From positions 2,129-66,128 of the forward strand of contig JAZDKG010000073.1 in the NCBI GenBank assembly GCA_043803205.1: 64,000 bases of DNA, in the 5' to 3' direction. The stretch is from Planctomycetota bacterium (lineage in GTDB: Bacteria > Planctomycetota > DG-23 > JAZDKG01). The notes beneath the pieces were generated by a model, which was not told the origin of the DNA, ran no database searches, and worked only from the letters and a program-made list of their open reading frames with translations. Below, one piece after another: positions 2,892-47,707 of this stretch. Positions within the stretch are counted from its first letter, which is position 1. Every line of letters starts with the position of its first letter. The translations under genes were made by a program, and so were the position numbers.

Positions 2892-3623
2892 ATGATCGTG
2901 ACCATTGACGGGCCGGCAGGGAGCGGCAAGAGCACGGCTGCGCGGAAGCTTTCCGAGCGCCTGGGGTTCCGATATCTTGAAACAGGGGCGATCTACCGGG
3001 CGCTCACACTGTGCGCTTTGCGGGCCAAAGCAGATCTTGAGAATGGGCCGGTACTTGCGGAGCTTTTCCGTCGAAACTCCGTGGAGCCGGTATGGGCACA
3101 GGAGGGGATCCGGGTGTTCCTTAACGGAGAAGACGTCTCTGCCGAGATTCGCACGAGGAAGATCACGGAGAGGGTCAAGAGCGTGGCCCGACACGCGGAG
3201 GTGCGCCGGCAAGTCAACGAGCTTACGCGGGGGTTGGCGAAAGGGAGATCGGCGATATCCGAGGGGCGCGACCAGGGGACGGTCGTCTTTCCGGATGCCG
3301 ACGTGAAGTTTTATCTCGATGCCAAGCTTGATGTTAGGGCAAGAAGGCGTTACGAGGAGCTAGTGGCCGCCGGCGAGAGGGCGACGCTGGAGGAGGTGCG
3401 GCGGGAGCTTGAGCAAAGGGATGAGAGCGATCTCTTTAGGAAAGTTGCGCCGCTCAGGCAGGCCCCGGATGCGGTGCGGGTGGACTCATCCGAGCTGACC
3501 GTCGAAGAGATGGTGGGAGAACTGGAGCGGGTGGTCATGGAGAGGAAGTCGAACGGTTCGTCCCGCAGCGGCGGTATCACCGCAGGCGGTTCGACAGGCC
3601 TCACCGCAGGGGGGGGAACATAA
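2892..3623 (+). CDS. cmk: Cytidylate kinase
   Basis: N-terminal IDGPAGSGKST P-loop and the overall Cmk pattern (GAIYRA, LDVRARRRYEEL). Confidence 0.9.
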   Translation: MIVTIDGPAGSGKSTAARKLSERLGFRYLETGAIYRALTLCALRAKADLENGPVLAELFRRNSVEPVWAQEGIRVFLNGEDVSAEIRTRKITERVKSVARHAEVRRQVNELTRGLAKGRSAISEGRDQGTVVFPDADVKFYLDAKLDVRARRRYEELVAAGERATLEEVRRELEQRDESDLFRKVAPLRQAPDAVRVDSSELTVEEMVGELERVVMERKSNGSSRSGGITAGGSTGLTAGGGT

Positions 3624-6994: not shown

Positions 6995-7867
6995 ATTTCC
7001 GACCGGGACACGATTCAGACCTATCTCCGGGAGATCAACCGGATTCCCCTCCTGAGCGCACAGGAGGAGAAGGAGCTGGCGCACCGTGTGCGGGAGGGGG
7101 ACCACGGGGCGCGCGAGCAGATGATCCAGGCGAACCTCCGCCTCGTGGTGAACATCGCCAAGGGCTACGCGCGCCGGGGGATGCCGCTGGGGGACCTCAT
7201 CGAAGAGGGGAACGTCGGGTTGCTGCGTGCGGTGCAGGGGTTCGATCCGGGGCAGGGGTTCCGGTTCTCGACCTACGCGTCCTGGTGGATCAAGCAGGCG
7301 ATCCGGCGGGCGCTCGTGTCCAAGGTGAAGACGATCCGGATCCCGGCGTACATGTCGGAGATGATCGGACGATGGCGCGCGGCGACGACGGAGCTCACCG
7401 ACCGGCTGGGGCGGGCGCCGATGGAGCGGGAAGTGGCGGAGGCGATGGAGGTGACGCCGGCGAAGCTCCGGCTCATCGTGATGGCGGCGAACTCGTTCGC
7501 GTCGGCGGACCAGCCGCTGGCGCACGATCAGTCGCTCACGATCGCCGACGTGCTGGCGGACGAGAGCATCAAGGCGCCCGAGCAGGAAGTCGCGGACAGC
7601 CTCGAGGTGGAGGGCCTGAAGGGGCTGCTGGAGCGCCTGTCGAAGCGCGAGGGGGACGTGCTCGTGATGCGCTACGGCCTCTTCGGGTGCGAGCCGATGA
7701 CGCTCAAGCAGATCGGGGAGAGGGTCAGCCTAACGCGCGAACGGGTGCGCCAGATCGAGAATCAGGCGCTGCGCAGGCTCTATGCGATGATGACGGACGA
7801 GGGGGAGCCGAAGGAGGAGAAGAAGCCGAAGAGGAAGGCGAAGGGGAAGAAGCGACGGGAGGCGTAA
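6995..7867 (+). CDS. Sigma-70 family RNA polymerase sigma factor (RpoD/RpoS-like, short form); start codon unresolved
   Basis: Regions 1.2, 2, 3 and 4 are recognisable: TIQTYLREINRIPLLSAQEE, ANLRLVVNIAKGY, GFRFSTYASWWIKQAI, LKQIGERVSLTRERVRQIENQALRRL. There is no ATG, GTG or TTG in frame between the upstream stop (6869-6871) and the conserved region 1.2 at ~7001. An ATT at 6995 is preceded by GGAGGA with a 6-nt spacer. Confidence 0.75.
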   Translation: MSDRDTIQTYLREINRIPLLSAQEEKELAHRVREGDHGAREQMIQANLRLVVNIAKGYARRGMPLGDLIEEGNVGLLRAVQGFDPGQGFRFSTYASWWIKQAIRRALVSKVKTIRIPAYMSEMIGRWRAATTELTDRLGRAPMEREVAEAMEVTPAKLRLIVMAANSFASADQPLAHDQSLTIADVLADESIKAPEQEVADSLEVEGLKGLLERLSKREGDVLVMRYGLFGCEPMTLKQIGERVSLTRERVRQIENQALRRLYAMMTDEGEPKEEKKPKRKAKGKKRREA

Positions 7868-7871
7868 GACG

Positions 7872-7942
7872 CCCCTTCGTCCCGCAGTCGCGGGATCGGC
7901 GCAGGCCCTTCGACGAGGCTCAGGGCAGGCGCTTCGGGCGGG
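7872..7942. repeat. Intergenic copy of a short hairpin-containing repeat family
   Basis: ccccttcgtcccgcagtcgcgggatcggcgcaggcccttcgacgaggctcagggcagg resembles the coding repeats at 1385-1477 and 1607-1639 and the gtcccgcagtcgcgggac hairpin inside the MITE-like element at 19437-19454. Confidence 0.6.
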
Positions 7943-7969
7943 AAAGATGGGAAGGAAAGGAGGGAGGCG

Positions 7970-10025: not shown

Positions 10026-10219
10026 ATCCCGACAGGGCGCGGGAAGCCGGCCCCGGGATTTCGGGATGAGGGGACGGCGGGAGAGTTGGATGCGCGCGGG
10101 GGAGGGTTTCCTCTTGTTGAGCGGATAGCGCCGCGGGACTCAGCCGCGAGTGCTGAGCGCGCCGAGTGGCTGTCTTGCGTCGCGCCGGCAACGCGGGATC
10201 GGCGCAAGGAGAAGGTGGA

Positions 10220-11278
10220 ATGCTGACGCCGAAGGAGAGGACGCTGCGGGCGCTGCGGTTTGAGCGCCCTGACCGCCTGCCCAAGGCGGACTTCTACTGG
10301 TCCGAGTTTGAGGCCATCGCCCGAAAGAGGCGCGCGATCCCGCCGGGCGTGTCGCTCGAAGAGCACTACGCGGTGGACATGGGGCTCCTCTTCCCGGACG
10401 AGGGGCCCTACACGACCCGCGCGGGCACCGTCCGGGAGACGGACACGGAGAGGATCCGCATCACTCCCTGGGGACAGAAGGTGCGTGAAGTGAAGGGGGC
10501 GTTCTTCAGCGAGGAGCTCGAATCGCCGATCCGGGAGCAGAAGGACCTCGATCGTCAGCCGTTCGATCCCCCAATGCTCCCGTCGCGATATGAGCATTTC
10601 CTTGACCCTTCCGTGTACCATCCGGACAAGCTCTGCTACTTCGTGAAAACGGGGGGCCCATACCTGCGGAGCGCGTTCGTGCGGGGACAGACGGAATGGC
10701 TCATGGACATCGCCGGGGACGAGGGATTCGCGAAGGAGCTCGCCTGGCGGATGGGGGACTTCCTCATGCAGGTCGGACGGGAGGCATTCAAGAGGTGGGG
10801 CGACACGTCCACGGGGGTGTGGATCTTCGACGACATGGCCTCCAACCGGGGCCCGATGTTCTCGCCCGAGAGCTTTGAGAGGATCTTACTGCCGGCGTAC
10901 CGGCACATGGTGAAGAGCTGGAAGGAGGCGGGGGCGAGCTACGTGCTTCTGCACTCGGACGGGAACATCGAGGTGCTCTTAGACATGCTGATCGAGGCGG
11001 GGATCGATGGGTTCAACCCGGTGGAGCCGCGCAGCGGGATGGACCTGGCGCGGCTGCACGAGAAGTACGGGAAGCGCGCGGCGTTCATCGGGGGGATGTG
11101 CAACTCGGTGGTGCTGCCGAGGGGGCCCGTCGAGAAGGTGCGGGAGCAGGCCGAGCGGATCATCGCGGCGGGGAGGGACGGCGGGGTTATCATCGGGGCG
11201 CACTCGATCGGCCCGGACATTCCCGTCGAGCACTACGAGGCGTACGTTGAGCTCGTGAACTCGTCGCGGTACGAGTGA
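10220..11278 (+). CDS. Uroporphyrinogen decarboxylase (URO-D) family protein, MtaA/CmuA-like (paralog 1)
   Basis: Length and conserved blocks of the URO-D / methylcobamide-methyltransferase family (FDDMASNRGPMFSPESF, HSDGNIEVLLDMLIEAGIDGFNP). RBS aaggagaagg before ATG 10220. Confidence 0.8.
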   Translation: MLTPKERTLRALRFERPDRLPKADFYWSEFEAIARKRRAIPPGVSLEEHYAVDMGLLFPDEGPYTTRAGTVRETDTERIRITPWGQKVREVKGAFFSEELESPIREQKDLDRQPFDPPMLPSRYEHFLDPSVYHPDKLCYFVKTGGPYLRSAFVRGQTEWLMDIAGDEGFAKELAWRMGDFLMQVGREAFKRWGDTSTGVWIFDDMASNRGPMFSPESFERILLPAYRHMVKSWKEAGASYVLLHSDGNIEVLLDMLIEAGIDGFNPVEPRSGMDLARLHEKYGKRAAFIGGMCNSVVLPRGPVEKVREQAERIIAAGRDGGVIIGAHSIGPDIPVEHYEAYVELVNSSRYE

Positions 11279-17647: not shown

Positions 17648-17659
17648 GAGGTGTGGACG

Positions 17660-19270
17660 ATGGCCAAGCAGCTCATGTATTCCGACGAGGCCCGTCGGAA
17701 GGTCCAGGCGGGGATCCGTCGTCTCGCCGACGCGGTGCGGGTGACGCTCGGGCCGACCGGGATGAACGTGATCATCGAGAAGAGCTTCGGTGGTCCGATG
17801 GTGACGAAGGACGGGGTGACGGTCTCGAAGGAGGTGGAGCTGGACGATCCCTTCGAGAACATGGGGGCGAAGATGGTGAACGAGGTGGCGACGAAGACCT
17901 CGAACGTCGCCGGAGACGGGACCACAACCGCGACCATCCTCGCCGAGGCGATCTACAACGAGGGGCTCAAGAACGTCACCGCGGGCGCCAACCCCATGGA
18001 GGTGAAGCGCGGGATCGAGCTAGCGGTCCAGACGGTGACGGAGGAGCTTGCGAAGCTGTCGCGCGCGGTGAAGCGCAAGGAAGAGATCGCGCAGGTGGCG
18101 ACCATCAGCGCGAACAGCGACACGGTGATCGGGAACTTGCTTGCCGACGCGATGGACAAGGTGGGCAAGGACGGCGTGATCACGGTCGAAGAGGGGAAGG
18201 CCGTGGAGACCACCCTCGATGTGGTGGACGGCCTGCGGTTCGACAAGGGATACATCTCGCCCTACTTCGTGACGGTGCCGGAGAAGATGGAGGCGACGCT
18301 CGAGAAGGCGTACATCCTCATCCATGAGAAGAAGATCTCCAACGTTCGGGAGCTCCTGCCGTTGCTGGAGAAGGTGGCGCAGAGCGGGAGGCCGCTCCTC
18401 ATCATCGCGGAGGAGGTCGAGGGCGAGGCGCTGGCGACACTCGTGGTGAACAAGCTGCGGGGGGTGCTCGTGACGTGCGCGGTGAAGGCGCCCGGCTTCG
18501 GGGACCGCCGCAAAGCGATGCTCCAGGACATCGCCATCATGACGGGCGGCGAGGTCGTCAGCGAGGATCTCGGCGTCAAGCTCGAGAACATCTCCATGGA
18601 CGTGCTCGGGTCGGCCGAGGCGATCACGGTGGACAAGGACAACACGACGATCGTGAAGGGGGGCGGGAAGAAGCAGGCGGTCCAAGACCGCATCGCGCAG
18701 ATCAAGAATCAGATCGAGCAGACGACGAGCGACTACGATCGCGAGAAGCTCCAGGAGCGCTTGGCGAAGCTCTCCGGCGGGGTGGCGATCCTCTCTGTCG
18801 GGGCGAACACCGAGGCGGAGATGAAGCAGAAGAAGGGCAGGGTGGAGGACGCGCTCCATGCGACCCGGGCGGCGGCCGAGGAAGGGATCGTGCCCGGGGG
18901 CGGGATCGCGCTCCTGCGGACCTGCGCGGCGCTGGACGCCGCGCGCAAGAAGGCCCGCGGGGACGAGAAGATCGGCGTGGACATCATCGCGCGGGCGATC
19001 CAGGAGCCGTTGCGGCAGATCGCGCGGAACTCGGGCGCGGACGGCCCCGTGATCCTGGCCCAGGCCCTCAAGAAACCCACGAACGTCGGCTTCGACGCGA
19101 CGACGGGGGAGTTCGTGGACATGTTCAAGGCCGGGATCGTCGATCCGACGAAGGTGGTGCGGACGGCGCTTCAGAACGCGGCCTCCGTGGCGGGGCTGAT
19201 GCTGACGACGGAGACGCTGGTCACGGAACTCAAGGAAGAGGAAGAGGAGGTCGCCGGGAGCATCGCGTAA
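17660..19270 (+). CDS. groEL: Chaperonin GroEL (copy 2, lacks GGM tail)
   Basis: A full-length 536-aa GroEL ([26 protein letters not shown]). The C-terminus is acidic ([12 protein letters not shown]) rather than GGM repeats. RBS aggaggtg. Confidence 0.95.
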
Positions 19271-19398
19271 GCTTGCGCCGGCGCGCCCGCGCTTGAGGGA
19301 GCTTCCCTCCGGCGCTACAATCAGGCGCACGGCGGATTGTCGGTGTTCGCGACGGCGGGCCGAGGAGTTCGACCCGCCGTCGCGCTTCCTCGAGGATA

Positions 19399-19688
19399 AG
19401 AGCCTATCCGAATACCAGGGCCGTGTGCGCCGCGAGGTCCCGCAGTCGCGGGACGAGCAGGACAAGGAGCGAGGAGGCAGCCGTGTCAAAGGATAGACAC
19501 GACGACGACGAGCGACGCAGGCATGCGATGCAACCGCCCGCGGCCCGGAGGGTTGGGGCGGCGAGAGGTCGTCTGCGGCGTTGCAACTCCTCAGCGTATC
19601 TCTCCTCTGATACACCTGCGTCGTCGCGCCTTGCATCCGACCTCTCGGCGCTCCCAACGCGCGCGACCCTGGTATTCAGATAGGCTCT
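19399..19688. mobile_element. MITE-like element copy A (non-coding, bounded by ~25-bp terminal inverted repeats)
   Basis: Left end agagcctatccgaataccaggg. The right end, reverse-complemented, is agagcctatctgaataccaggg. An internal core gcatgcgatgcaaccgcccgcggcccggagggttggggcggcgaga is shared with copy B. It contains the gtcccgcagtcgcgggac hairpin at 19437-19454. It lies between the groEL2 stop and the dnaJ start. Confidence 0.6.
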
Positions 19689-19713
19689 AAGGTCCGGTCG
19701 CGGGATGGCCTGG

Positions 19714-27357: not shown

Positions 27358-28350
27358 TCAGTCCGCCGGCGGCGTCTCGTCCCCGGCGTTCTCCCCGGTC
27401 GCTTCCTTTCCCCGATAGAAGCTATGGCCCACGTATCGGACCCAGGCGGTGAAGGGGTCGTCAGTCCCGCTCGCGCGGGAGAGGGCGTTGGCGGCGATCC
27501 AGTGTTTGGAGTCCGCGTCGTCGGCGTAATGGAGGAGGAGCGCCTCGCGCGTCTTCGGGGGGATGGGAGAGCCCCATTCGGGGAGCCCTTGGTGGGAGAG
27601 AACCATGTGTTCGATGAGGAGCGCGAGCTCCTGCGGGAACCCTTCGATGCGGGCGATCCGCTCCGAGACCATGCGGATGCCCAGGATGATGTGTCCCAGC
27701 ATGCCGCCGGGGACGGTGTAGTTGAACTCGCGGACGGAGTCCAGCTCCTCGACTTTTCCGATGTCGTGCAGGATCGCGCCGGTGATGAGGAGGTCGCGGT
27801 CGGCGGCGTAGTGTTCGGCGAAGAAGTCGCAGACTTCCGCGACGGAGACGACGTGCTCGAGCAAGCCGCCGATGTAGGCGTGGTGGACATCGCGGGCGGC
27901 GACGGAGCGCTTGAAGGCCTCGCGGAAGCCCGCGTCGTCGAAGAAGGCGGCCAAGAGCTTCGCCAGCCACTCGTTTTCGATGGAGCCGATGAAGGCCTCG
28001 ATGGTCTGCCAGAGCTGCGCTACGTCCCTCGGGGTGTGGGGGAGGAGGTCGGCGAGGTCGAAGGGGTCGTCATCGCGGGCCTTGCGGAGCTGCTTCACGT
28101 TGAGCTGTCGCTCGCCTTGGAAGGTCTCGACGATCCCCTGCGCCTTGACGACGTCGCCCTTGCCGAACTGGTCGTTGAGCTCCTGGGCGTTGTCCCAGAC
28201 CTTGGCGTCGATCCGGCCGGAGGCGTCCTGGAGGTCAAGGGTGAGGTAGGCCTTCCCCGCGCGCGTGAGGCTGAGGGTCTTTTCGCGCACGAGGAAAAAA
28301 TCCACGACGACCTCGCCGACGGTGAGGTCTTGGATGCAACGGGCTCGCAT
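27358..28350 (-). CDS. YhaM-like HD-domain protein (OB-fold plus HD phosphohydrolase; 3'-5' exoribonuclease family)
   Basis: N-terminal OB-fold region (GEVVVDFFLVREKTLSLTRAGKAYLTLDLQDASGRIDAKVWD). HD motif (HVVSVAEV...ILHDIGK). The start was chosen at the MRARCIQDL ATG. The longer track ORF adds an implausible N-terminal extension. Confidence 0.7.
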   Translation of the reverse strand: MRARCIQDLTVGEVVVDFFLVREKTLSLTRAGKAYLTLDLQDASGRIDAKVWDNAQELNDQFGKGDVVKAQGIVETFQGERQLNVKQLRKARDDDPFDLADLLPHTPRDVAQLWQTIEAFIGSIENEWLAKLLAAFFDDAGFREAFKRSVAARDVHHAYIGGLLEHVVSVAEVCDFFAEHYAADRDLLITGAILHDIGKVEELDSVREFNYTVPGGMLGHIILGIRMVSERIARIEGFPQELALLIEHMVLSHQGLPEWGSPIPPKTREALLLHYADDADSKHWIAANALSRASGTDDPFTAWVRYVGHSFYRGKEATGENAGDETPPAD

Positions 28351-28498
28351 GATCACCTCGCTTCCGGGAAAGGGCAGGAGCTTCGCCGATCTTTCGACCG
28401 GGACCATTTTAGCCGGGGACGACTCGGGCGCAATCGCGGCTTCTCGCCGGCGGGCGAATCTGTACAATAGGATCCTCTTTGCGTTGGAGGATCGCGCG

Positions 28499-29557
28499 AT
28501 GCCGAAGGAGAGCATGACGGCGAGGGAGCGATGGGAAGCGGTGCTGGATCGGCGCAAGCCGGACCGTGTGCCAATGGACTACTGGGCTACGCCCGAGGCC
28601 GACGAGAAGCTGATGAGGCACCTCCGGGTGAACACGATCGAGGAGGCGCACGCCAAGCTTCACATCGATAGGCCCCTCACGGTGTCTCCGCGGTACGTCG
28701 GTCCGCCCCGTCCGCCGGGGACGAACCAGTGGGGGTGTCGGGTGCGACGGGTCCGTTACGAGACGGGGGTCTACGAGGAGATCGTCTCTCATCCGCTGGC
28801 GTCCTGCTCGTCGATCGAGGAGATCGACGCGAACTACCGGTGGCCGTCGACGGACTGGTACGACTACTCCCACCTCGCGGAGGAGATCCGGGGGCAGGAG
28901 CACCGTCCGGTCCAGGCCGGGGGGTCGGAGCCGTTTCTTGTCTACTGCGAGTTGCGGGGCCTGGAGCTGGGGATGATGGACCTGGTGACGGTGCCCGAGA
29001 TCGTCCGCCACTGCCTCGGAAAGCTCTTCGACTTCGCCTATGAGAACACTCGCCGGATCTATGAGGCGATCCCCGGGAGGGTGCTCATCTCGTACGTCGC
29101 GGAGGACATGGGGTCGCAGACGGACCTCCTTTTCTCGCCCGAGGCGATTCGTACCTTCTTCCTTCCCGGGATGAAGCGGATGAACGAGCTGGCGCATTCC
29201 GCGGGGGCGCGCGTCTTCTATCACAGCGACGGGGCGGTCCGGAAGATCGTGCCCGACATGATCGCGATCGGGATCGACGTCCTCAATCCCGTCCAGTGGC
29301 GCTGCGAAGGGATGGAGCGCCAGGCCCTCAAACGCGACTTCGGGGACAAGGTCATCTTCCACGGCGGCGTCGATAATCAGCACACGATCCCGTTCGGCAC
29401 GCAGGACGAGGTGCGCCGCGAGGTGCGAGAGAACATCCGAATCCTCGGCGCGGGGGGCGGATACATCCTCGCCCCGTGCCACAATATTCAGGCCGTCGGC
29501 CCCGCCGAGAACGTCGTCGCGATGTACGAAGAGGGGTACGCCTGCGGATGGACCTGA
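28499..29557 (+). CDS. Uroporphyrinogen decarboxylase (URO-D) family protein, MtaA-like (paralog 2)
   Basis: URO-D family blocks (YVAEDMGSQTDLLFSPEAIRTFFLPGMKRM, HSDGAVRKIVPDMIAIGIDVLNPVQ). RBS ggagg 7 nt before ATG 28499. Confidence 0.8.
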   Translation: MPKESMTARERWEAVLDRRKPDRVPMDYWATPEADEKLMRHLRVNTIEEAHAKLHIDRPLTVSPRYVGPPRPPGTNQWGCRVRRVRYETGVYEEIVSHPLASCSSIEEIDANYRWPSTDWYDYSHLAEEIRGQEHRPVQAGGSEPFLVYCELRGLELGMMDLVTVPEIVRHCLGKLFDFAYENTRRIYEAIPGRVLISYVAEDMGSQTDLLFSPEAIRTFFLPGMKRMNELAHSAGARVFYHSDGAVRKIVPDMIAIGIDVLNPVQWRCEGMERQALKRDFGDKVIFHGGVDNQHTIPFGTQDEVRREVRENIRILGAGGGYILAPCHNIQAVGPAENVVAMYEEGYACGWT

Positions 29558-33551: not shown

Positions 33552-34898
33552 TCACTTGCTCAGACGAAGGACGGCATTGCGGTGATCGATCTTCGGATAG
33601 TACGTGTCGAACTCGAACTTGGGGCTGTTCTCCGGGTCGTGGCAGGTGCGGCACTTCGATTCGTCGGGACGGGAGTAGGGGGCCAGCACGTTACGGAGGT
33701 GCCGGCTCCCGGGGCCGTGACACGCCTCGCACGCGACGTTCGCCAGATCAGGCGTGAGGGCGCGACTGCGGAAGCCTCCCTCATTCTCGAGACCGACGGT
33801 GTGACAGACGACGCACTCGGGATCCCGGTCGGCGCCTTCTTTCTCGAGGGAGGCCAGCGCCTCCTCATGTTTCACCGTGCGCCACTTGCGGAACTGCGGG
33901 AGGTGACAGCGGGCGCAGCCGCTCAAGCCCAGGTAGCGACGGTCCCCGATCGCCATCCGGGGAAAGCGATCGATCAGCCCCTCCTCCGAGACCTGGAGAC
34001 GGTAGTCGGCGAGAAGCTCCGCGACGGACTTGTCCTCCGGCATGTCCCCGGAGAGGAACGTCGGGGTGTAGCGCGTGCCGAGGACCGCCCCCGAGGGATC
34101 GAAGTCCACGTCGAGGCGCGCGACCCATTTCCCATAGAGACCGGTTCCCACGACGGCGGTCGCGCCGACCTTCTCCTCGGCCTCGGGGGGTTTCTCCTCG
34201 AGGTAGCCTCTCGCGGCGACGTCGATCCCCGGGGCCTCGCGCGCGATGCGCTTCGCCTCTTCGGCGCCGGCGTGGCAGAGGAGCACGACGAGGTCGGCGC
34301 GGGGACGCAGTTCCGCGACGAGTTCGCGCGCCGTCGCCACAGGGTCCAAGAGCTCCAGGTCGGGCGCCATGCTGGAGAGTTCGATGCGGAAGGCTTCCCC
34401 CAGGATGGCGAACACGGCCACGCGCCGGCCGCTCGGTAGCTCGATCACGATCGAGCGCTCGAAGGGAAAGCCGCCGTCCCGGCGCCTTGCGTTCGACAGG
34501 ATCAGGGGGACGGGGGAGCCGACGGCCTGGGCGTTGAGGGTGGACAAACCCAGGGCGAAGTCCCGGAAGCCCACGGCGCAGGCGTTGTATCCCATCTCGC
34601 CGAGGGCCAGGAGCGTGTACTCGTACTTGATCTCCTGCTGACGGCCCCCCTCCAGGACGAGTCCCCCGTTGTCGAGGAGGACGATCTCCCCGCCCGTGTT
34701 CCGGCGCAGTTCTCGCACGAAGGTCGAGCGACGGGGGAGGCCGCCCACCATGTCCTCCGTGCACCCGCAGGGGGCGAGGCGCCCCATCTGTTCGCCCGTG
34801 AAAAGGATCGTGAGGCGGGAGGGCTCATCCGCCGCGAGGGTTGCGACGCTCGAGACGAGGAGCACCAGATAAAGGACCAGAGGGCGGGCGCGCTTCAA
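33552..34898 (-). CDS. Fusion protein: N-terminal degenerate 5'-nucleotidase/metallophosphatase-like domain plus C-terminal tetraheme c-type cytochrome domain
   Basis: A TTG start at 34898 follows the RBS gggaggg and gives the signal peptide (M)KRARPLVLYLVLLVSSVATLAA. The N-terminal ~300 aa resembles the 5'-nucleotidase family (LLDNGGLVLEGG, VLLCHAGAEEAKRIAREAPGIDVA) but lacks the GNHE and GGH metal ligands. The C-terminal ~130 aa carries four CxxCH motifs (CARCH, CVVCH, CEACH, CRTCH). The upstream part of the track ORF is high-GC artefact overlapping the DUF1573 gene. Confidence 0.65.
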   Translation of the reverse strand: MKRARPLVLYLVLLVSSVATLAADEPSRLTILFTGEQMGRLAPCGCTEDMVGGLPRRSTFVRELRRNTGGEIVLLDNGGLVLEGGRQQEIKYEYTLLALGEMGYNACAVGFRDFALGLSTLNAQAVGSPVPLILSNARRRDGGFPFERSIVIELPSGRRVAVFAILGEAFRIELSSMAPDLELLDPVATARELVAELRPRADLVVLLCHAGAEEAKRIAREAPGIDVAARGYLEEKPPEAEEKVGATAVVGTGLYGKWVARLDVDFDPSGAVLGTRYTPTFLSGDMPEDKSVAELLADYRLQVSEEGLIDRFPRMAIGDRRYLGLSGCARCHLPQFRKWRTVKHEEALASLEKEGADRDPECVVCHTVGLENEGGFRSRALTPDLANVACEACHGPGSRHLRNVLAPYSRPDESKCRTCHDPENSPKFEFDTYYPKIDHRNAVLRLSK

Positions 34899-40743: not shown

Positions 40744-40925
40744 AGGACGCTCCTTCCCGTTTCCGCGTGCGCACGCATTATAGACGAGGGCCTTCCGGCG
40801 CACAAGGAAGGGCGCCGGTGCGCCCGGGGCTTGGGCGCGGGACCGCAGACCTTGACGGCAGCGGCGCCCGTGGGCCAAAATGCCGTGCCGCACGGGCAAC
40901 GTCGTATCTGGGGAAAGGAACGATC

Positions 40926-42053
40926 TTGACTGCGAAGCAGCGCATTTTAGCGGCGCTCCGGTCGGCTGTGCCCGACGCGGTCCCGGTCACGCTCGGGACG
41001 AGCGAGATGGTGCCCGTCAGGAAGTCGGGCCTCGATTACATTCAGTTCTTCTGGCGCGAGAAGCGCAGCCTCGTGCGGGCCCGCTGCGACACGGAGAAAG
41101 GCTTCGGAGGGGACGTGTTTCTGCATTCGGGCCCCGGCCCGTCCGCGGGCGATCCGGAGGTGACCACCGAAACGCTGAAGGACACGCTCGAAGAGGTCAT
41201 CTACCGGGAGACGATCCACACGCGCAGGGGGGGGCTCTCGAGCGTGCTGCGGATCACGCCCACGGAGTCGATCGCGACGCTTGAGGGCGCGGTGAAGGAC
41301 GCGACGGCCGACCGGGAGAAGGTCCTCGATCTCCTAGCCGATCCCGAGGGCAAGGACTACTCGGACTACGTCTCCGACCACGCGTACGTCGGGGACGCGG
41401 GGCACTGCGGGCTGTGGCTCTCGACCCCGATCGACTGGTGGTCGGGGTTGCGCGGGAGCCCCGAGAAGGCGATCTACGATCTTGCGGACCACCCGGAACT
41501 CATGAAGGACCTCTTCGCCGCATACACGAGGTACGCCGCCGCGCTCATCGCCGATTTCCTCGCGCGTTACCGGGCGATCGCAGACTCGATCGGTCTGGGA
41601 GGAAGCACGACGTCCATGTCGGTTATCTCGCCGGCGCTGCTTCGCGAGCACGCGGTCGGTTTCGTGCGGGCGATCAAGGGGGAGGCGGCGCGCTGCGGCG
41701 TCCCGGTCCAGTACCACATGTGCGGACGCTCACGGGAGGCGATCCCGATCCTCGTGGAGGCCGGGGTGGACGGCATGGACGCCCTCGAATGCCCCCCGAC
41801 GGGGAACGTGGACCTCGCCGAGGTGAAGAGGCTTTTCGGATCGCGCATCTCGCTGCGGGGGAACGTGAACTCGATCACGGTGATGCTGCGCGGGTCGCCC
41901 CGCGACGTCGAGCGGGACGTCCTGCGCTGCATGGAGGCCGCCAAGAAGGGGGGAGGGTATGTCCTGGGAGTGGGGGACCAGGCGCCGTACCATACCCCCG
42001 ATGAGAACCTCGCCGCATTCGTGGAAGCCGGTCGGAGATACGGGAAGTACTAG
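40926..42053 (+). CDS. Uroporphyrinogen decarboxylase (URO-D) family protein (paralog 3)
   Basis: URO-D family C-terminal blocks (HMCGRSREAIPILVEAGVDGMDALE, GGGYVLGVGDQAPYHTP). A TTG start at 40926 follows ggaaagga. The track ORF from 40767 adds an Arg/Gly-rich artefactual N-terminus. Confidence 0.7.
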   Translation: MTAKQRILAALRSAVPDAVPVTLGTSEMVPVRKSGLDYIQFFWREKRSLVRARCDTEKGFGGDVFLHSGPGPSAGDPEVTTETLKDTLEEVIYRETIHTRRGGLSSVLRITPTESIATLEGAVKDATADREKVLDLLADPEGKDYSDYVSDHAYVGDAGHCGLWLSTPIDWWSGLRGSPEKAIYDLADHPELMKDLFAAYTRYAAALIADFLARYRAIADSIGLGGSTTSMSVISPALLREHAVGFVRAIKGEAARCGVPVQYHMCGRSREAIPILVEAGVDGMDALECPPTGNVDLAEVKRLFGSRISLRGNVNSITVMLRGSPRDVERDVLRCMEAAKKGGGYVLGVGDQAPYHTPDENLAAFVEAGRRYGKY

Positions 42054-43409: not shown

Positions 43410-44387
43410 CTACTCCCCTGTCCACAGAAGCCGCACGTGCGCGCGCTTCTCGAGCTCGCTAAGGTACCTGTCCCTTCGCTCGTTGAACTTTTTCTCGAAG
43501 AGTTTCTCGTAGATCCCCTTCTGCGCTTCCTCGAAGGGGATGATCCCCTCCGGCGTGGTCTCCAGCACCTTCACGAGGTGGCAGCCGATGGAGGATTCGA
43601 TGACGTCGGAGAGCTCGCTCGCCGAAAGGGCGAAGATGCGGTCATCGACCTCTTTGCGGAAGGTCCCTGGGGTGACGTTCTCCCAGACGCCGCCGTCCTG
43701 CGCGTGCGGGCAGCTCGAGTGCATTCGCGCCAACTCCCGCATGTCCGCGCCGCCCTCGATCTCGCGGCGAAGCTCCCGGGCGAAGGCCAGCGCCTGCTCC
43801 TTCCCCCCCTGGCGCTCGGGGGTGATGAGGATGTGGATCATCTTCGCTGCGCGCGGGCGCCTGAACTCGGCGCCGTTCACCTCGTAGTAGCGCAGGAGCT
43901 CCTCCGGGGAGACGGCGACGCGGCTGTAGACGTGTTCGTTGAGAAGGGCGCCGATCAGGATCTCCGTGCGGTATTGCTCGCGCTGATCGTCAAGCGTCTT
44001 TCCCTCACGGGCGAGGGTTTCCCGCAGGGCGGTCATGGACCCGGCCCCGGCGATGTCGTCGCGCAGGCGTCTCCGGACGCGCTCGTCGATCTGATCCGAG
44101 ATCTGTTTCGTGACGAGGCGCTCGGCCTCCTGACGAAGCAGGATCTCGTTCTTCCGGTAGGCCAGCCTCTTGAAGAGAAGGAGGGAGATCCTCTTCTCGA
44201 GCTCATCCCCAACGTAGTTTGCCCGGAGCTCCTGGATCGCCGGCCCGAGGCCTTTGACGAGCTCCGAGTACGTAATGACGACCCCGTTCACCTCCGCGAC
44301 CACCATGCTGGCAGGTCTCTCCTGGGCGGACAGGGGCCGCGCCAGGAGCGCTGATACCGCCAGTATGACGGCGACGAGCCGCGTCAT
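43410..44387 (-). CDS. Peptidyl-prolyl cis-trans isomerase, SurA/PpiC (parvulin) family
   Basis: Signal peptide MTRLVAVILAVSALLARPLSAQE. A SurA-like N-terminal chaperone domain. Parvulin rotamase signature (HILITPE...SSCPHAQDGGVWENVTPGTF...GCHLVKV). Confidence 0.8.
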   Translation of the reverse strand: MTRLVAVILAVSALLARPLSAQERPASMVVAEVNGVVITYSELVKGLGPAIQELRANYVGDELEKRISLLLFKRLAYRKNEILLRQEAERLVTKQISDQIDERVRRRLRDDIAGAGSMTALRETLAREGKTLDDQREQYRTEILIGALLNEHVYSRVAVSPEELLRYYEVNGAEFRRPRAAKMIHILITPERQGGKEQALAFARELRREIEGGADMRELARMHSSCPHAQDGGVWENVTPGTFRKEVDDRIFALSASELSDVIESSIGCHLVKVLETTPEGIIPFEEAQKGIYEKLFEKKFNERRDRYLSELEKRAHVRLLWTGE

Positions 44388-47300
44388 CGTGGTCCTGTTC
44401 CTTCTGGTCCGAAGCCGCGCGTCCCGGAAGACTGCATTCTAGAGCATCCGCCGGCGCTGGCAAGCGCGCGGTGCGCGAATTCCAAGAGCGCGTTTCCGTC
44501 GCGGCGGGCGTCCTCGTCGAGGGGGGTGACGACCGTCCTTTCGTCGACGACTCGAGCGACGACCCCGCCCGCCCGCAACGCCCCCGCCAGCATCTCGGGG
44601 TCGCGGCATTGGAAGCGCAGCATCCCGTCCGCCCGCATGCAGGTCCGCACGCCCCAGCGGGCGGCGCGAATGCGCACCCGGTGTTTCATGACGAGGCGTT
44701 CCACCTCCGCGGGCGGCTGTCCGAAGCGGTCGCGGATCTCCTGTTCGAGCGCGTCGAGGTCCTCGAGCGTCGAAGCGGTTGCCAGCCTCCGGTAGATCTC
44801 CATTCGGAGGCGGTCCGCCGGGATGTAGCTCGCCGTGATGTAGGCGTCCGCCCCGAGGTCCACCGTCACCTCCGCGGTCTCGGGGACCCCGCCGCCGGTG
44901 GGGTCGCGCAGACGGGCCACCGCCCCTTCGAGGAGCCTGCAGTAGAGCTCATATCCGACCGCCGCGATGTGCCCCGACTGCTCGGGGCCCAGCAGGTTCC
45001 CCGCGCCGCGGATCTCGAGGTCCCGCATGGCGATCTTGAACCCGGCCCCCAGTTCACTGTGGTCCGCGATCGCGCGCAGGCGCTTGGCGGCGTCGGGGGT
45101 GACGGGACGGTTCTCGGGGAGCAGCATGTAGGCGTACGCGCGGTGCTTGTAGCGTCCCACGCGGCCGCGGAGCTGATGGAGCTCCGCGAGCCCGAACATG
45201 TCTGCCCGGTCGATGAAGAGCGTGTTGGCTGTCGGGATGTCCAAGCCGTTCTCGATGATCGTCGTCGCCACCAGGACGTCCGCCTCCCGGTTGAGGAAGC
45301 GCATCATGTGTTCCTCGAGGTCGTCCTCGTGCATCTGTCCGTGGGCGACGATGAAGCGCGCCTCCGGGACGATTCCCGCCAGCTCCCTTGCCCTCGCGTC
45401 GATCGTCCGCACGCGGTTGTGCACGAAGAACACCTGGCCGCCCCGCGCGAGCTCCCGAAGCACGGCCTGTCGCACGCGACTTCGGTCGAAGCGGCAGACG
45501 ATCGTCTCGATTGAGAGCCTGTCCTGCGGGGCCGTCGAGAGGGTGGAGATGTCCTTGATGCCGGCGAGCGCTAGGTGCAGCGTCCTGGGGATCGGCGTCG
45601 CGGTGAGGGTGAGGCAGTCCACCATCGTCTCGTCGCGCTTCAGGATCTCCTTGTGTCGGACGCCGAACCGCTGCTCCTCGTCCACGATCACCAGGCCCAA
45701 CGACGCGAAGCCGACGTCCTGCTGAAGGAGCCGGTGCGTGCCGATCACGATGTCGACGCGTCCTTCCGCCAGTCCCGCCAGGATCTCGCGCTCTTGGGCC
45801 GTCGAGCGGAAGCGATCCAGCGCCCGCACTTCAACGGGGTAGTCGGCCAGCCTCTCGAGGAAGGTGCGGACGTGCTGTTCGACGAGGAGGGTCGTGGGCG
45901 CGAGCACGGCCACCTGCTTCCCCGCCTGGGCCGCCTTGAACGCCGCCCGCACCGCGAGCTCGGTCTTGCCGTATCCCACGTCGCCGCAGACCAGGCGGTC
46001 CATCGGGTGGGGAGACTGCATGTCCGTCTTGATCGCCGCCAGCGCATTGAGCTGGTCGGGCGTCTCCTCGTAGAGGAAGGCGGCCTCGAACTCGCGCTGC
46101 CAGTCGGCGTCGGGCGGGTAGGTGATACCGGGGAGCACCGCGCGCCGGGCCTGGACTTCGAGAAGCTCCGCGGCGAGGTCCTTGGCGGCGGCCTCCACCT
46201 GGGCTTTGCGCGCGAGCCACGCCTTGCCCTGAAGCTTCGAGAGAGGGGGCCGTCGCTTCCACCCTCCGACGTACTTGTGCACGAGGTCGATCTGCGAGGC
46301 GCTCACGTAAACGCGGGCGTTATCCGCGAATCGCAGGACGAGGAATTCCTCCTTGCCGCGCGGACCCTCCATGACCTTGAGCCCCTCGTAGATCGCGATC
46401 CCCTTCGTCGTGTGCACCACGGGCTCGCCCGCCGAAAGGTCCAGAAACGAGTCGATGGGCCTCGCCTCGACCGGCCGCCGGGGCTCATAGCGCCGACGGT
46501 ACCGGTGAAACATCTCGTGATGGGCGATCACGGCGAACGCCGGCTCGCGGCTGACGAAGCCCCGGGAGATTCGTCCCAAGACGTGACGGAGCGTGGCGGG
46601 CTCACCTCGTCCGGGCTCGGCGAGAAGCTCGACGAGCCTCCTGCGCTCCCCGACGTTGTTGGCGAAGAGGAAGACCGCGGGGAGCTCGCCGGCGCGGCGG
46701 ACGAGCTCCCGGACCGCCTCGCCGGCGTCGCGCGGAAAATCCTCGACGGCCGCGAAGTCGAAGTCGAAGCTGCGTCCCTCCTCGAAGCGCTCGCGGAAGG
46801 TGCTGAGATAGACCCTGGAGTCGATCCCGGCGCCCTGCGCGTGCAGGATGGTCTCCACGCGGTAGAGTCCACGGGCCTCGCGCACCGTGTCGAGATAGCG
46901 CCTGCCGTGCTCCTCGACCGATGCGGGCTCGACGACGGCGACGGCGCTTCCGGGGGGAAGGAGGCTGGTGAACGGAACGGTCCGAGCGCTTTCCGGCGCG
47001 CGGCCTCCGGAGCCGGAGAGGACGCAGCCCTCGGTCTCGTCTCGGCTCTCCTGCGTCTCCGGATCAAAGAGGCGGATCGACGCGACCTCGTCGCCGAGGA
47101 ACTCGATCCGGTAAGGCTCGCGGGAGGTCGCCGGAAAGACGTCCAGGATCCCGCCCCGGCTAGCGTAGCTCCCGGGGGACTCGGCCACGTCCTCCCGGTC
47201 GAAGGAGTTTTCGGTGAGCCAGGCGGCGACGTCCTCCCTGGGAAGACGTCCGCCCCGTCGCACCACGAGATCGCGTTCCGCCAAGGTCGTCGGATCGCAG

Positions 47301-47707
47301 GCGCCCTGGATGAGCGCGGCGACGCTCGCCACGACGATTGCGCCTGCGGCGAGCTCTCCCCGGCGCAGTCCGTCGACCACCATGAGGCGGTCTCGGACGA
47401 GGTCGTCCACGACGGTGCCTTCCTCCCCCGGAAGCGACTCGAGCTGGGGGTAGAGCTCCACGCGCCCGCCGGCTAAGAGCGCGAGGTCCGAGTGGAGGTC
47501 CTCGGCGGTGTCGAGGTCCGAGGCGACGACGAGGAAGATGCCCCGCGTGCGCTCCGCCAATGAGGCGAGAGCGAGCGCCTGCGACGCCCCCCACAGGCCC
47601 GACAGGTACAGATTCCCTCCGGCTCCAAACGCGTCGAGGGCCCCCTTCGCCGCGCGCGTTTGCAGGAAAAGATCGCGCAACTGGCGCACCGGGCGAGCGC
47701 CGTTCAT
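44384..47707 (-). CDS. mfd: Transcription-repair coupling factor
   Basis: A 1107-aa protein with a UvrB-homology N-terminal domain, an RNAP-interacting domain, DEAD/DEAH helicase motifs (GDVGYGKTE, VVDEEQRFG), and the TRCF C-terminal domain. The stop overlaps the surA-like gene start. Confidence 0.95.
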   Translation of the reverse strand: MNGARPVRQLRDLFLQTRAAKGALDAFGAGGNLYLSGLWGASQALALASLAERTRGIFLVVASDLDTAEDLHSDLALLAGGRVELYPQLESLPGEEGTVVDDLVRDRLMVVDGLRRGELAAGAIVVASVAALIQGACDPTTLAERDLVVRRGGRLPREDVAAWLTENSFDREDVAESPGSYASRGGILDVFPATSREPYRIEFLGDEVASIRLFDPETQESRDETEGCVLSGSGGRAPESARTVPFTSLLPPGSAVAVVEPASVEEHGRRYLDTVREARGLYRVETILHAQGAGIDSRVYLSTFRERFEEGRSFDFDFAAVEDFPRDAGEAVRELVRRAGELPAVFLFANNVGERRRLVELLAEPGRGEPATLRHVLGRISRGFVSREPAFAVIAHHEMFHRYRRRYEPRRPVEARPIDSFLDLSAGEPVVHTTKGIAIYEGLKVMEGPRGKEEFLVLRFADNARVYVSASQIDLVHKYVGGWKRRPPLSKLQGKAWLARKAQVEAAAKDLAAELLEVQARRAVLPGITYPPDADWQREFEAAFLYEETPDQLNALAAIKTDMQSPHPMDRLVCGDVGYGKTELAVRAAFKAAQAGKQVAVLAPTTLLVEQHVRTFLERLADYPVEVRALDRFRSTAQEREILAGLAEGRVDIVIGTHRLLQQDVGFASLGLVIVDEEQRFGVRHKEILKRDETMVDCLTLTATPIPRTLHLALAGIKDISTLSTAPQDRLSIETIVCRFDRSRVRQAVLRELARGGQVFFVHNRVRTIDARARELAGIVPEARFIVAHGQMHEDDLEEHMMRFLNREADVLVATTIIENGLDIPTANTLFIDRADMFGLAELHQLRGRVGRYKHRAYAYMLLPENRPVTPDAAKRLRAIADHSELGAGFKIAMRDLEIRGAGNLLGPEQSGHIAAVGYELYCRLLEGAVARLRDPTGGGVPETAEVTVDLGADAYITASYIPADRLRMEIYRRLATASTLEDLDALEQEIRDRFGQPPAEVERLVMKHRVRIRAARWGVRTCMRADGMLRFQCRDPEMLAGALRAGGVVARVVDERTVVTPLDEDARRDGNALLEFAHRALASAGGCSRMQSSGTRGFGPEGTGPR

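Follow-up and report, generated by a model that had tools for sequence, protein, structure and literature searches.

A probable IS5-type MITE with a conserved two-domain core in the groEL2–dnaJ spacer of a Planctomycetota bacterium

Between groEL2 and dnaJ of a Planctomycetota bacterium lies a non-coding stretch bounded by inverted repeats, and the question is whether this DNA is a mobile element, a native regulatory region or the gene of a structured RNA. The whole stretch of DNA analysed, referred to here as the window, comprises 64,000 nucleotides. The initial annotation described a MITE-like element with terminal inverted repeats (TIRs) at 19399–19688. The element (copy 1) is real, the sequences quoted for it are found at these coordinates, and it lies inside the groEL2–dnaJ gap as described, with groEL2 (17651–19270, Pfam) upstream and dnaJ downstream. 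Comparison with relatives places the dnaJ start at 19714 (MTTERDYY) rather than at 19705. The spacer is 434 nt long in the window, compared with 111–130 nt in three related Planctomycetota contigs (130 nt at loci L044/L045, 111 nt at L046–L048 and 113 nt at L049/L050). These relatives keep the Cpn60-Cpn10-Cpn60-DnaJ-GrpE-Zn_ribbon synteny (groEL-groES-groEL-dnaJ-grpE), with DnaJ 62–72% identical, and their spacers are empty of the element. Homology is found on both flanks of the insertion point, where a native spacer hairpin on the left (GACGGCGGGCCGA-N5-TCGACCCGCCGTC, 19351–19381, forward strand), conserved in the relatives, and the Shine-Dalgarno (SD) sequence and ATG on the right can be aligned. 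On this comparison of filled and empty spacers, copy 1 is an insertion. A single locus in the B. cepacia complex is likewise filled in B. cenocepacia and empty in B. arboris, B. stagnalis and B. multivorans. In the spacer a single sigma-70-like promoter was matched, by consensus (TTGAGG-17-TACAAT, 19293–19321, forward strand); it is upstream of the element and none is inside it; the suggestion that the element supplies or disrupts the dnaJ-grpE promoter is therefore unsupported.

Copy 1 is 288–290 nt long and non-coding. The element proper occupies 19400–19687 of the forward strand (GAGCC...GGCTC, 288 nt) and is not present in the orthologous spacers of L044, L046 and L049; the interval 19399–19688 adds one base of each target-site duplication (TSD). 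The duplication is a TAA direct repeat, at 19397–19399 on the left and at 19688–19690, followed by G, on the right, so that the pre-insertion site can be read as GGA-TAA-G. The left arm, AGAGCCTATCCGAATACCAGGG (19399–19420), and the reverse complement of the right arm, AGAGCCTATCTGAATACCAGGG (19667–19688), are identical at 21 of 22 positions, with an imperfect extension to 26/31. The ends are thus inverted repeats as annotated, about 22–31 bp in length and not exactly 25 bp. In the window, an 18-nt pattern from the termini has four matches (0.03 expected), which are the four ends of copies 1 and 2.

The entire copy 1 folds as one long imperfect hairpin with a minimum free energy of −169 kcal/mol (z = −8.4; an equal fold in 0 of 200 shuffles). 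All of its parts are given on the forward strand. The left TIR (19399–19429) is the 5′ arm of the outer stem P1 and carries the terminal GAGCC and a GAATAC block corresponding to the near-invariant AATAA of the family; the right TIR (19658–19688) is the 3′ arm, as supported by TIR comparison and P1 statistics. Enclosed by the TIRs is a two-domain fold, in which each domain consists of a stem, an internal loop and a small hairpin. The left domain core U′ (19463–19521; alignment A2) contains a purine-rich block A, CAAGGAGCGAGGAGG (19463–19477), a covarying hairpin (19483–19500) and a block B, CGACGACGACGAGCGACGCAGG (19500–19521), with a segment conservation of 0.72–0.76 versus other phyla. A central GC-rich hairpin (CCGCCC...GGGCGG, 19534–19561), assigned from fold and covariation, is followed by the right domain core U (19554–19649; alignment A4), which matches the covariance model with 71 bits (E = 8.5e-18). 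Core U contains block A′, CTGCGGCGTTGCAACTCCTCAG (19573–19594), a covarying hairpin (19596–19613) and block B′ (19621–19641) with the 21-mer TCGTCGCGCCTTGCATCCGAC. Additionally, a small hairpin, GTCCCGCAGTCGCGGGAC (19437–19454), a member of a second repeat family (D17), is nested in copy 1 only and is not found in copy 2. A protein-coding reading of the left domain, with an SD-like GAGGAGG followed by GTG or ATG, was rejected: copies 1 and 2 are put out of frame with each other by a 2-nt indel, hairpin-loop lengths differ by non-multiples of three, and no ORF is conserved.

The window contains three copies in 64 kb, which are 223–290 nt long and have no conserved ORF, as is usual for MITEs in size (under about 500 bp) and coding content. 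Copy 2 (47734–48009, reverse strand, 276 nt, TIR 27/29) had been described as a near-identical inverted copy; it is indeed inverted, and its identity to copy 1 is 89% over aligned columns (84% with gaps counted), so that the two are similar but not near-identical. On one side of copy 2 is a TATAAT-like box and on the other the start of mfd (44384–47707, minus strand); copy 2 is divergent from a DUF502 gene, and no clean target duplication is present (flanks TCA and TTG). The closest DUF502 homologues available as an empty-site comparison are at most 45% identical and have no synteny with mfd. Copy 3 (62889–63111, reverse strand, 223 nt, TIR 20/21), missed in the initial annotation, is diverged (about 59% identical overall) and carries the same invariant 21-mer. 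It is located between genes for a GlcNAc 2-epimerase and a rubrerythrin, the epimerase ORF extending 13 codons into it (stop at 63074–63072), and it also has no clean target duplication. A fourth covariance-model match (34410–34505) is marginal, lies inside a coding region and was taken as chance.

The core 21-mer led to about 40 relatives in other genomes and metagenomes, namely Planctomycetota, Elusimicrobia, Verrucomicrobia, delta-proteobacterial and Polyangiaceae MAGs, and Herbaspirillum; further members were found by BLAST in Burkholderia, Caballeronia and Paraburkholderia. The relatives were mostly gathered with the exact 21-mer, so that part of its apparent invariance is ascertainment, and copies found with the model or by BLAST are more diverged than those retrieved with the 21-mer. 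Seven near-identical copies occupy separate loci of one delta-proteobacterial MAG, and four occur in one Elusimicrobia MAG. The family is multicopy and, by these copies and the filled/empty Burkholderia locus, recently active. Internally deleted forms (L015, L040), a copy lacking the left TIR at two loci of the Elusimicrobia MAG (L003, L014), and minimal 105-nt forms with unrelated closing stems 2–5 nt after tRNA genes (L036) are also found. The copies without a left TIR and the minimal tRNA-adjacent forms are not explained by classical TIR-dependent transposition. Two loci, L017 and L024, proved to be chance 21-mer matches. Phage and plasmid origins were rejected, as BLAST with copy 1 matched none of 50,697 phage and 72,556 plasmid records and the 21-mer is absent from IMG/VR. 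No Rfam 15 family reaches its gathering score anywhere in the window, and over the element permissive settings returned only noise (E > 0.5). Permissive scans of six related loci assigned no family over the element; the B. cenocepacia copy gave only miRNA-type noise (E ≥ 0.1), and L036, L032 and L038 gave nothing. A literature search by sequence strings and concepts retrieved no description of these repeats, which make up a seemingly undescribed family in at least five bacterial phyla.

Target duplications and termini point to the type of mobility. Identical TNA triplets, followed by G, flank 13 of 19 copies of the 'GAGCC-type', and the central base is never complementary. The 'ACTGAGCC' Planctomycete and Burkholderia subtypes have no direct repeat and show an extended palindrome instead (TTACTGAG...CTCAGTAA; TCAGGG...CCCTGA). 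The termini (GAGCCTGT, GAGGGTGT) are similar to IS5-family ends. TIRs of the family include GAGCCTGTTTATGATC (L033/L038), TGAGCGTGCTATTCC (Herbaspirillum, L007), GAGGGTGTTCTGCACC (L029), AGAGCCTATCCGAATA (window) and CAGGGTCTGTT (Burkholderia). IS5-family insertion sequences (ISs) make short duplications (PMC3189936, PMC2516522, PMC4482050): ISPsy19, with the TIR GAGGGTGTAGACAAAAT, duplicates 3 nt (PMC3189936), the IS1031 group has three-nucleotide insertion sites (PMC2516522), and a C/TNA/G target with a 3-bp TSD is reported for the IS5/PIF-Harbinger transposase superfamily (PMC4482050). The ends of ISPsy19, read directly, are AGAGGGTGTAGAC...GTCTACACCCTC, and those of a B. glumae IS5-family IS are TA/GAGCGTGTTATGCAC.../TA. 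The GAGCC/GAGGG ends of the window family and its TNA duplication followed by G agree with the GAG/GG ends and the 2–4 bp duplications of TNA/CTAG-type targets in the IS5 family (IS1031/IS427-like groups) and the PHIS superfamily, the likeness of the ends being limited to the terminal 8–15 nt or so.

A cognate transposase with matching TIRs was sought and not found in the window, the related loci or the plasmid and chromid records. Pfam identified no transposase among the approximately 45 window genes. Around 35 copies, 124 ORFs at distances of up to 3 kb were compared, and by the commonest families listed neither a transposase nor a RAYT or recombinase recurs. TIR searches of the window and of about 450 kb of related loci found no autonomous IS with matching TIRs, nor did BLAST of 72,556 plasmid/chromid records with a Burkholderia TIR. 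GAG-ended inverted repeats with TNA flanks and a spacing of 0.5–3.5 kb were also scanned for, with a negative result.

Copy number, empty sites, target duplications and IS5-like termini all support the interpretation of the element as a MITE, and it is probably a non-autonomous DNA transposon of the IS5/PIF-Harbinger ('PHIS') type that carries a conserved structured module. A DDE transposase of the DDE_Tnp_1 type, encoded elsewhere in the genome, would recognize the GAGCC...AATAA inverted repeats, cut a TNA/G site with a 3-nt stagger and insert the element, with gap repair duplicating TNA. Copy 1 would have entered the groEL2–dnaJ spacer at GGA-TAA-G. This point follows the native hairpin and precedes the dnaJ start codon by 24 nt, and the SD region is left intact. 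TNA sites are often stop codons where genomes are GC-rich and tightly packed, so that surviving copies would lie at gene ends with the stop codon regenerated; the stop codon of a co-directional upstream ORF falls within the first 0–6 nt of the element in at least nine copies. The family resembles IS5-derived MITEs such as MITEPsy1 of Pseudomonas syringae and the eukaryotic Tourist-type MITEs derived from PIF/Harbinger in being small and non-coding, with TIRs beginning GAG/GG, many copies and empty sites (PMC3189936, PMC4482050), and in duplicating a short target containing T(N)A (TNA, C/TNA/G, CTAG/YTAA). Unlike these, it has no identified parent IS, keeps one internal architecture across five or more phyla, has loop blocks more conserved than its TIRs and TIR arms that covary, and includes subtypes that lack a duplication.

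Four single-stranded blocks are kept across phyla, and every helix, including that formed by the TIRs, varies with compensating changes. The unpaired blocks are 72–97% identical between the window and other phyla; the helices are 25–41% identical and compensated. The loop consensus is of GAGGAGG type for A, CGACGACGAG for B, CTCCTCCTC for A′ and CTCGTCGTCGCGCCTTGCAT for B′. In P1, double changes occur in 24 of 28 pairs and 96.4% of cells are paired. A DDE transposase needs no complementarity between its two TIRs; the maintained complementarity of the P1 arms therefore calls for an additional process, either selection for the hairpin or homogenization by template switching. Bacterial MITE families are usually limited to a genus or family, and the TIRs are their conserved parts. 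Concentration of conservation in internal unpaired blocks is atypical of MITEs. The alternative initially proposed to a MITE was a structured ncRNA gene family; strongly covarying stems and cross-phylum conservation of the unpaired blocks suggest that a role as a structured nucleic acid may coexist with mobility rather than replace it. The core may be needed for propagation or persistence; it would act either in folded single-stranded form, as DNA or read-through RNA, or as a platform to which proteins bind. The internal unpaired blocks are nearly unchanged while base composition is adapted to each host, a pattern that points to strong selection for contact with a partner, which could be a protein, the ribosome or another RNA, or a recombinase working on folded DNA; none has so far been described.

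Tentatively, the two-domain core could be a previously unrecognized structured nucleic-acid module, present in at least five phyla, with a biochemical function of its own and defined by loops GAGGAGG / CGACGACGAG facing CUCCUCCUC / CUCGUCGUCGCGCCUUGCAU. If the module exists, it might, for instance, be an RNA chaperone, bind ribosome-binding sites as an RNA, or serve a recombinase as a signal in folded single-stranded DNA, and it would ride in an IS5-type MITE shell and also occur as a stand-alone hairpin gene beside tRNA genes.

It is unlikely that the core is instead a functional structured RNA, a cis-acting UTR element or a small RNA, kept for use by the host, with mobility explaining its spread only. 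Such an RNA might stabilize mRNA 3′ ends, or present anti-SD-like CUCCUCC loops to ribosome-binding sites, masked by the GAGGAGG loops of the left domain. Conserved unpaired blocks with compensated helices are the classic pattern of functional RNA, and base composition tracks the host (core matches from 0.51 to 0.77 GC), suggesting long residence under purifying selection. In rough ORF calls, the upstream gene is on the U strand in about 22 copies versus about six with both neighbours on the other strand, and the TSD, taken on the U strand, is a stop codon (TAA/TGA) in 11 cases versus TTA in two. All three window copies run in the direction of the downstream gene, two of them between a promoter-like box and a start codon, and the minimal forms directly follow tRNA genes. 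Moreover, loops A and A′ are fully complementary, as are B and B′, with 80.9% of cells paired; rod pairing (A:B′ and B:A′) reaches 67.1% and leaves three positions unpaired in 17/17 sequences and a fourth in 15/17. Against an RNA, antisense folds equal or exceed sense folds in stability in 28 of 34 copies, so that no strand-specific RNA signal is detected, although the difference is about what the purine-rich core contributes by itself. The helices also show no excess of G-U wobbles (about four G-U versus about eight A-C among 468 cells), there is no Rfam family or terminator-like U-tract, and part of the invariance is due to the ascertainment noted above.

The scarcity of G-U pairs indicates a strand-symmetric constraint at the DNA level, which would suit a REPIN-like element, an explanation that we consider improbable. 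Here, inverted hairpin units would form a single-stranded DNA hairpin copied by a domesticated HUH tyrosine transposase (RAYT/TIRYT), one per genome, and the covarying stems would reflect selection for that hairpin. As in REPINs, REP-RAYT systems and TIRYT 'TIRtrons', the family has an inverted hairpin dimer with compensated arms, positions after genes and GTAG/CGTC-like motifs (PMC3733652, PMC3116915). The dimer consists of U-like units, the left domain being a clear inverted paralogue of the right in the beta-proteobacterial type; most copies lie just 3′ of genes, and even the truncated and minimal forms are found at two or more loci. Often the hairpins have the sequence CGTAG...CTACG with CGTCGTCG after it, reminiscent of the GTAG/CGTC-tagged REPs. 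REP dimers are also known from within long palindromes, and RAYT-like genes with long flanking TIRs have been described (PMC3733652). However, identical TNA flanks are present in 13/19 copies, the terminal bases match those of DDE IS5-family ends, and GTAG is paired within the hairpin rather than placed at its foot. The units, about 90 nt, are far longer than REPs (20–40 nt), the window contains no Y1 transposase, none recurs among the commonest families listed for the neighbours of 35 copies, and no RAYT flanked by the repeats was seen nearby. IS200/IS605-type and RAYT mobilization is not known to make target duplications.

Very improbably, the mobile unit is the roughly 70-nt core alone, and palindromes already in place (such as terminator hairpins or other MITEs) receive it in their loops, the 'TIRs' being target palindromes: closing stems are unrelated among subtypes and minimal forms, internally deleted and left-TIR-less forms exist, nesting occurs (the small hairpin of copy 1) and REP dimers inside long palindromes are reported (PMC3733652), yet the outer termini (GAGCC and the AATAA block) are homologous across phyla and TNA-flanked, which indicates that the whole unit moves, and no 'empty' palindrome without the core was found in the window or related loci. 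Further candidates were also dropped: retron msr/msd (no RT), bridge or seek RNA (no IS110 recombinase, and here the loops rather than the stems are conserved), a sigma-54 promoter (no GG at −24), and CIRCE, attC and 6S RNA (no defining feature).

Other palindromic repeats share some traits with the IS5-type MITE proposed here. ERIC/IRU and Correia (NEMIS) elements are 100–300 bp stretches of transcribed intergenic DNA, confined to one order or genus and flanked by TA duplications. The window family resembles them as imperfect palindromes near gene ends that would form long hairpins in read-through RNA and that vary in position between related species (PMC3733652). It differs in having a wider host range, TNA rather than TA duplications and no detectable sequence relationship. 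Rickettsia palindromic elements are similarly tolerated at or in coding ends, as where copy 3 provides the last 13 codons of the epimerase ORF; unlike them, most copies of the window family end at the stop codon of a gene and are not in-frame, and neither sequence nor hosts are shared. Integron attC sites have a conserved structure with variable stem sequence, directly follow ORFs and are recognized as folded single strands. The window family is alike in structure, stem variability and placement after ORFs; its elements, however, are longer and dispersed among housekeeping genes, a context that argues against attC sites with their R″/R′ core sites, cassette array and nearby intI.

For this organism, the long groEL2–dnaJ spacer is a recent insertion, not a native regulatory region. 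The insertion places a very stable 290-nt hairpin in the probable dnaJ-grpE leader, and annotation and studies of heat-shock regulation in this lineage should account for the inserted spacer. For the family, a single architecture is shared by Planctomycetota, Elusimicrobia, Verrucomicrobia, delta-proteobacteria/Myxococcota and Betaproteobacteria. With members in the genetically tractable Burkholderia and Caballeronia, and the filled/empty polymorphism there, both the mover of the element and the role of its core are directly testable.

The element at 19399–19688 of the window (copy 1) is an insertion in the groEL2–dnaJ spacer. In agreement with the initial annotation, Pfam assigns GroEL (17651–19270), DnaJ and GrpE around it; a DnaJ of 377 residues on record at NCBI is 100% identical to that of the window, which comes from a Planctomycetota MAG. 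The gene order Cpn60-Cpn10-Cpn60-DnaJ-GrpE-Zn_ribbon is kept in three sets of related contigs (DnaJ identity to the window 72%, 64% and 62%), whose groEL2–dnaJ spacers do not contain the element and measure 130, 111 and 113 nt, compared to 434 nt in the window. These spacers align with the window on both sides of copy 1, on the left through a conserved hairpin, GACGGCGGGCCGA-N5-TCGACCCGCCGTC (19351–19381), kept in the related Planctomycetota contigs L044, L046 and L049, and on the right through a GGGAGG-like ribosome-binding region and the start codon. The surplus in the window is the element plus one TAA, reading GGA-TAA-[GAGCC...GGCTC]-TAA-G. Searching the relatives' dnaJ contigs with a covariance model built on the core gave no family copy. 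The native hairpin, distinct from the element, is a candidate terminator or regulatory structure belonging to the chaperone operon.

Copy 1 is bounded by terminal inverted repeats (TIRs), as first described, with a left end of AGAGCCTATCCGAATACCAGGG and a right end whose reverse complement is AGAGCCTATCTGAATACCAGGG. The inverted ends are confirmed (21 of 22 positions identical); their length, given as 25 bp, is less sharply defined, with an imperfect extension to 26/31. Both ends of copies 1 and 2 match a terminal pattern of 18 nt, four matches in all in the window (0.03 expected). Copy 1 has no coding capacity and folds as a single long imperfect hairpin (-169 kcal/mol, z = -8.4). Copy 2 is present on the minus strand at 47734–48009 as reported, with an identity of 89% over aligned columns (84% with gaps) rather than near-identity; its TIRs differ from those of copy 1 at two positions, each mirrored in the opposite arm. 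A third copy (62889–63111, minus strand, 223 nt), not recorded initially, is far more diverged, has a TIR of its own (20/21) and shares with the other two the 21-mer TCGTCGCGCCTTGCATNCGAC. No convincing fourth copy was found when the whole window was searched with the core model.

Pfam places Mfd downstream and a divergent DUF502 gene upstream of copy 2, and GlcNAc 2-epimerase and rubrerythrin beside copy 3; each of the three copies is co-directional with its downstream gene. The epimerase ORF extends 13 codons into copy 3 (63072–63111; TGA at 63074–63072). Because removal of copy 3 restores a different tail of 12 codons ending in TAA, the insertion probably replaced the C-terminal tail of the epimerase. 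Roughly 45 further genes of the window are ordinary chromosomal genes and include no transposase, RAYT or recombinase; three uroporphyrinogen decarboxylase-like paralogues lie within 32 kb (10166–11278, 28265–29557 and 40767–42053).

Two other small repeats occur in the window. The hairpin GTCCCGCAGTCGCGGGAY (1613–1630, 7879–7896 and 19437–19454; diverged at 1385, 2096 and 3560) has 10 matches at up to three mismatches, with 0.6 expected; one lies nested in copy 1 and is absent from copy 2. A 24-nt motif, GGCCCTTCGACAAGGCTCAGGGCA, which often adjoins this hairpin, recurs partly in tandem pairs (1429–1475, 1774–1823, 1969–2029, 3557–3610 and 7893–7953), some inside a repetitive secreted-protein ORF (344–2182) or the tail of ORF 2892–3623, and some just past a sigma-factor ORF (7088–7867).

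The 21-mer (copy 1, 19621–19641), used as a search pattern, matched 21 loci in species-representative genomes and 22 in metagenome contigs; L017 and L024 were set aside, and all others are clearly related. The core model added three copies in the collected loci. Hosts named in the records are MAGs of Elusimicrobia (three), Planctomycetia, Polyangiaceae, Verrucomicrobia and Burkholderiales, a 'delta proteobacterium' MAG with seven copies, and the isolate Herbaspirillum sp. LeCh32-8. BLAST with a beta-proteobacterial member as query revealed diverged copies, all unannotated, in complete replicons of cultured species: Caballeronia sp. NK8, Burkholderia spp. THE68, YI23 and RPE67, B. cenocepacia, B. 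stagnalis (10 places), B. arboris and Paraburkholderia sprentiae. The window copy had no match in phage or plasmid collections, nor the 21-mer in IMG/VR; neither Rfam nor the literature gave a match, and the family appears to be undescribed.

A second filled/empty case, independent of that in the window, is found in the Burkholderia cepacia complex. One B. cenocepacia copy (L052:1501-1785) has no counterpart at the orthologous site in three other species (L060, L061 and L062): B. arboris, B. stagnalis and B. multivorans. The filled site reads GAAT[TCAGGGTCTG...CAGACCCTGA]CATCATG and the empty site GAATCGAGCATCATG in B. arboris and B. multivorans and GAATCGACCTTCATG in B. stagnalis; a direct repeat is lacking, and the insertion apparently replaced four bases.

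Copies ending in (G)GAGCC...GGCTC(C) carry the same trinucleotide on both sides in 13 of 19 cases (TAA in six, TGA in five, TTA in two), always as a direct repeat and never as the complement, followed by G. These flanks are a 3-bp target-site duplication (TSD) of a TNA|G target; copy 1 has TAA on both sides. Such a signature is on record for the IS5/PIF-Harbinger superfamily: C|TNA|G targets with 3-bp TSDs (PMC4482050), insertion sites of three nucleotides in the IS1031 group (PMC2516522), and, for ISPsy19 with its TIR GAGGGTGTAGACAAAAT, a duplication of 3 nt (PMC3189936). Read directly, the ends are CTA|AGAGGGTGTAGAC...GTCTACACCCTC|CTA for ISPsy19 and TA|GAGCGTGTTATGCACTTT...|TA for a B. glumae IS5-family element. 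The TIRs of the family (beginning GAGCCTGTTTATGATC, TGAGCGTGCTATTCC, GAGGGTGTTCTGCACC and GAGCCTGTGAAGG; AGAGCCTATCCGAATA in the window) resemble these ends over the first 8–15 nt. ISPsy19-like transposases are widespread (1117 plasmid or chromid records, 31 of them Burkholderia).

The proposal that the element is a MITE is thus supported: it is an insertion, it has TSDs and multiple copies, it does not encode a protein, and its termini are IS5-like. It is likely an IS5/PHIS-type MITE that would be mobilised by a transposase supplied in trans, cutting TNA|G with a 3-nt stagger, with copies lasting at harmless places, namely spacers and stop codons, which TNA sites often are in compact GC-rich genomes. 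The upstream co-directional ORF has its stop codon within the first 0–6 nt of the element in at least nine copies, and at L004 one TTAA is used by two convergent genes, both stops being intact.

The outer stem P1, formed by the two TIR arms, encloses two domains, with a small GC hairpin at the centre; each of the two comprises a stem, an internal loop and a hairpin that covaries. The 5' and 3' loop strands are CUGCNGCGUUGCUCCUCCUCG and CNUCGUCGUCGCGCCUUGCAUNCGAC in the right domain U, and AAGGARCGAGGAGG and CGACGACGAGNGACGCAG in the left domain U'. No form lacks U; the short delta-proteobacterial copies and the minimal forms have it too. Conservation is centred on the four unpaired blocks (A and B in U', A' and B' in U), not on the TIRs: identity between the window copy and non-window copies is 0.72–0.76 in the U' blocks, 0.81 in the U 5' loop, which lies outside the search pattern, and 0.97 in the 21-mer of block B', whose invariance is partly by construction, compared to 0.25–0.41 in all stems, both hairpins and both TIR arms. 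Since the block order is A, B ... A', B' and not mirrored, simple inversion of U does not give U'. A simple rod pairing (A:B' and B:A') leaves 67.1% of cells paired, with three positions unpaired in 17/17 sequences and a fourth in 15/17, these being G-G and C-C mismatches; A:A' and B:B' are fully complementary (80.9% paired), but the two cross. The sequences vary too little for covariation to choose between the two pairings. The conserved core calls for an explanation beyond the MITE account: most likely it is a module that the element would need, as a folded single strand, in order to propagate or persist, or else a platform that would bind a protein.

A function of the core as RNA for the host, the main alternative or an additional role, is rather improbable. 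A rough orientation bias, from simple ORF calls, hints at selection through transcripts: the upstream gene is on the U strand in about 22 copies, versus about six whose two neighbouring genes both lie on the opposite strand. TSDs read on the U strand are TAA/TGA in 11 cases and TTA in two. Folding energies single out neither strand; the antisense is more stable in 28 of 34 copies by a margin approximating the purine-rich core's own contribution. P1 covaries strongly: 96.4% of 468 cells are paired and both sides changed in 24 of 28 pairs, each measure exceeding 500/500 shuffles and slid controls. Wobble is nearly absent (about four G-U versus about eight A-C cells), and therefore the constraint is strand-symmetric, which fits selection of a DNA-level hairpin, or homogenisation of a quasi-palindrome by template switching, better than a one-strand RNA helix.

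Several features depart from a plain MITE, among them the covariation of P1 and the conservation of unpaired blocks rather than TIRs. No autonomous partner was recovered by TIR searches, TIR BLAST or a scan for longer inverted repeats that end in GAG and are flanked by TNA, and the 124 ORFs within 3 kb of 35 copies, housekeeping genes, include no recurrent enzyme family. Clean duplications are absent from copies 2 and 3, from a Planctomycete subtype (TTACTGAG...CTCAGTAA) and from the Burkholderia subtype (TCAGGG...CCCTGA), where the palindrome just runs further out. The same copy without its left TIR occurs at two loci of one Elusimicrobia MAG (L003:2941-3170 and L014:5003-5232); because both begin at the left-domain stem, with its 5' arm ATGGCTGACCG, they suggest a truncated form that was itself copied. 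Metagenome contig L036 holds two 105-nt minimal forms (1016–1120 and 1903–2000), each an unrelated closing stem plus the core, 2–5 nt downstream of tRNA-Gln and tRNA-Glu. The family also has internally deleted derivatives: L015 and L040 are such forms, the latter joined at its two homologous small hairpins, and L010, L039 and L043 lack the core hairpin at the genomic site where the L029 copy is full-length. A REPIN/RAYT-type mechanism would accommodate the inverted-dimer shape and compensated arms, but neither the duplications nor the termini, and is improbable.

Taken alone, copy 1 is nothing out of the ordinary; its family is unusual in its spread across phyla and in conserving internal loops rather than ends. 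Copy 1 lies after the native hairpin, 24 nt upstream of the dnaJ start (19714, by alignment with relatives), leaving the ribosome-binding region intact. The earlier suggestion that it could supply the dnaJ promoter was not upheld: it contains no sigma-70-like match, and since the only one in the spacer (19293–19321) is upstream, nothing points to promoter supply by the element. Should dnaJ be transcribed from that upstream site, its leader would gain a very stable hairpin of 290 nt.
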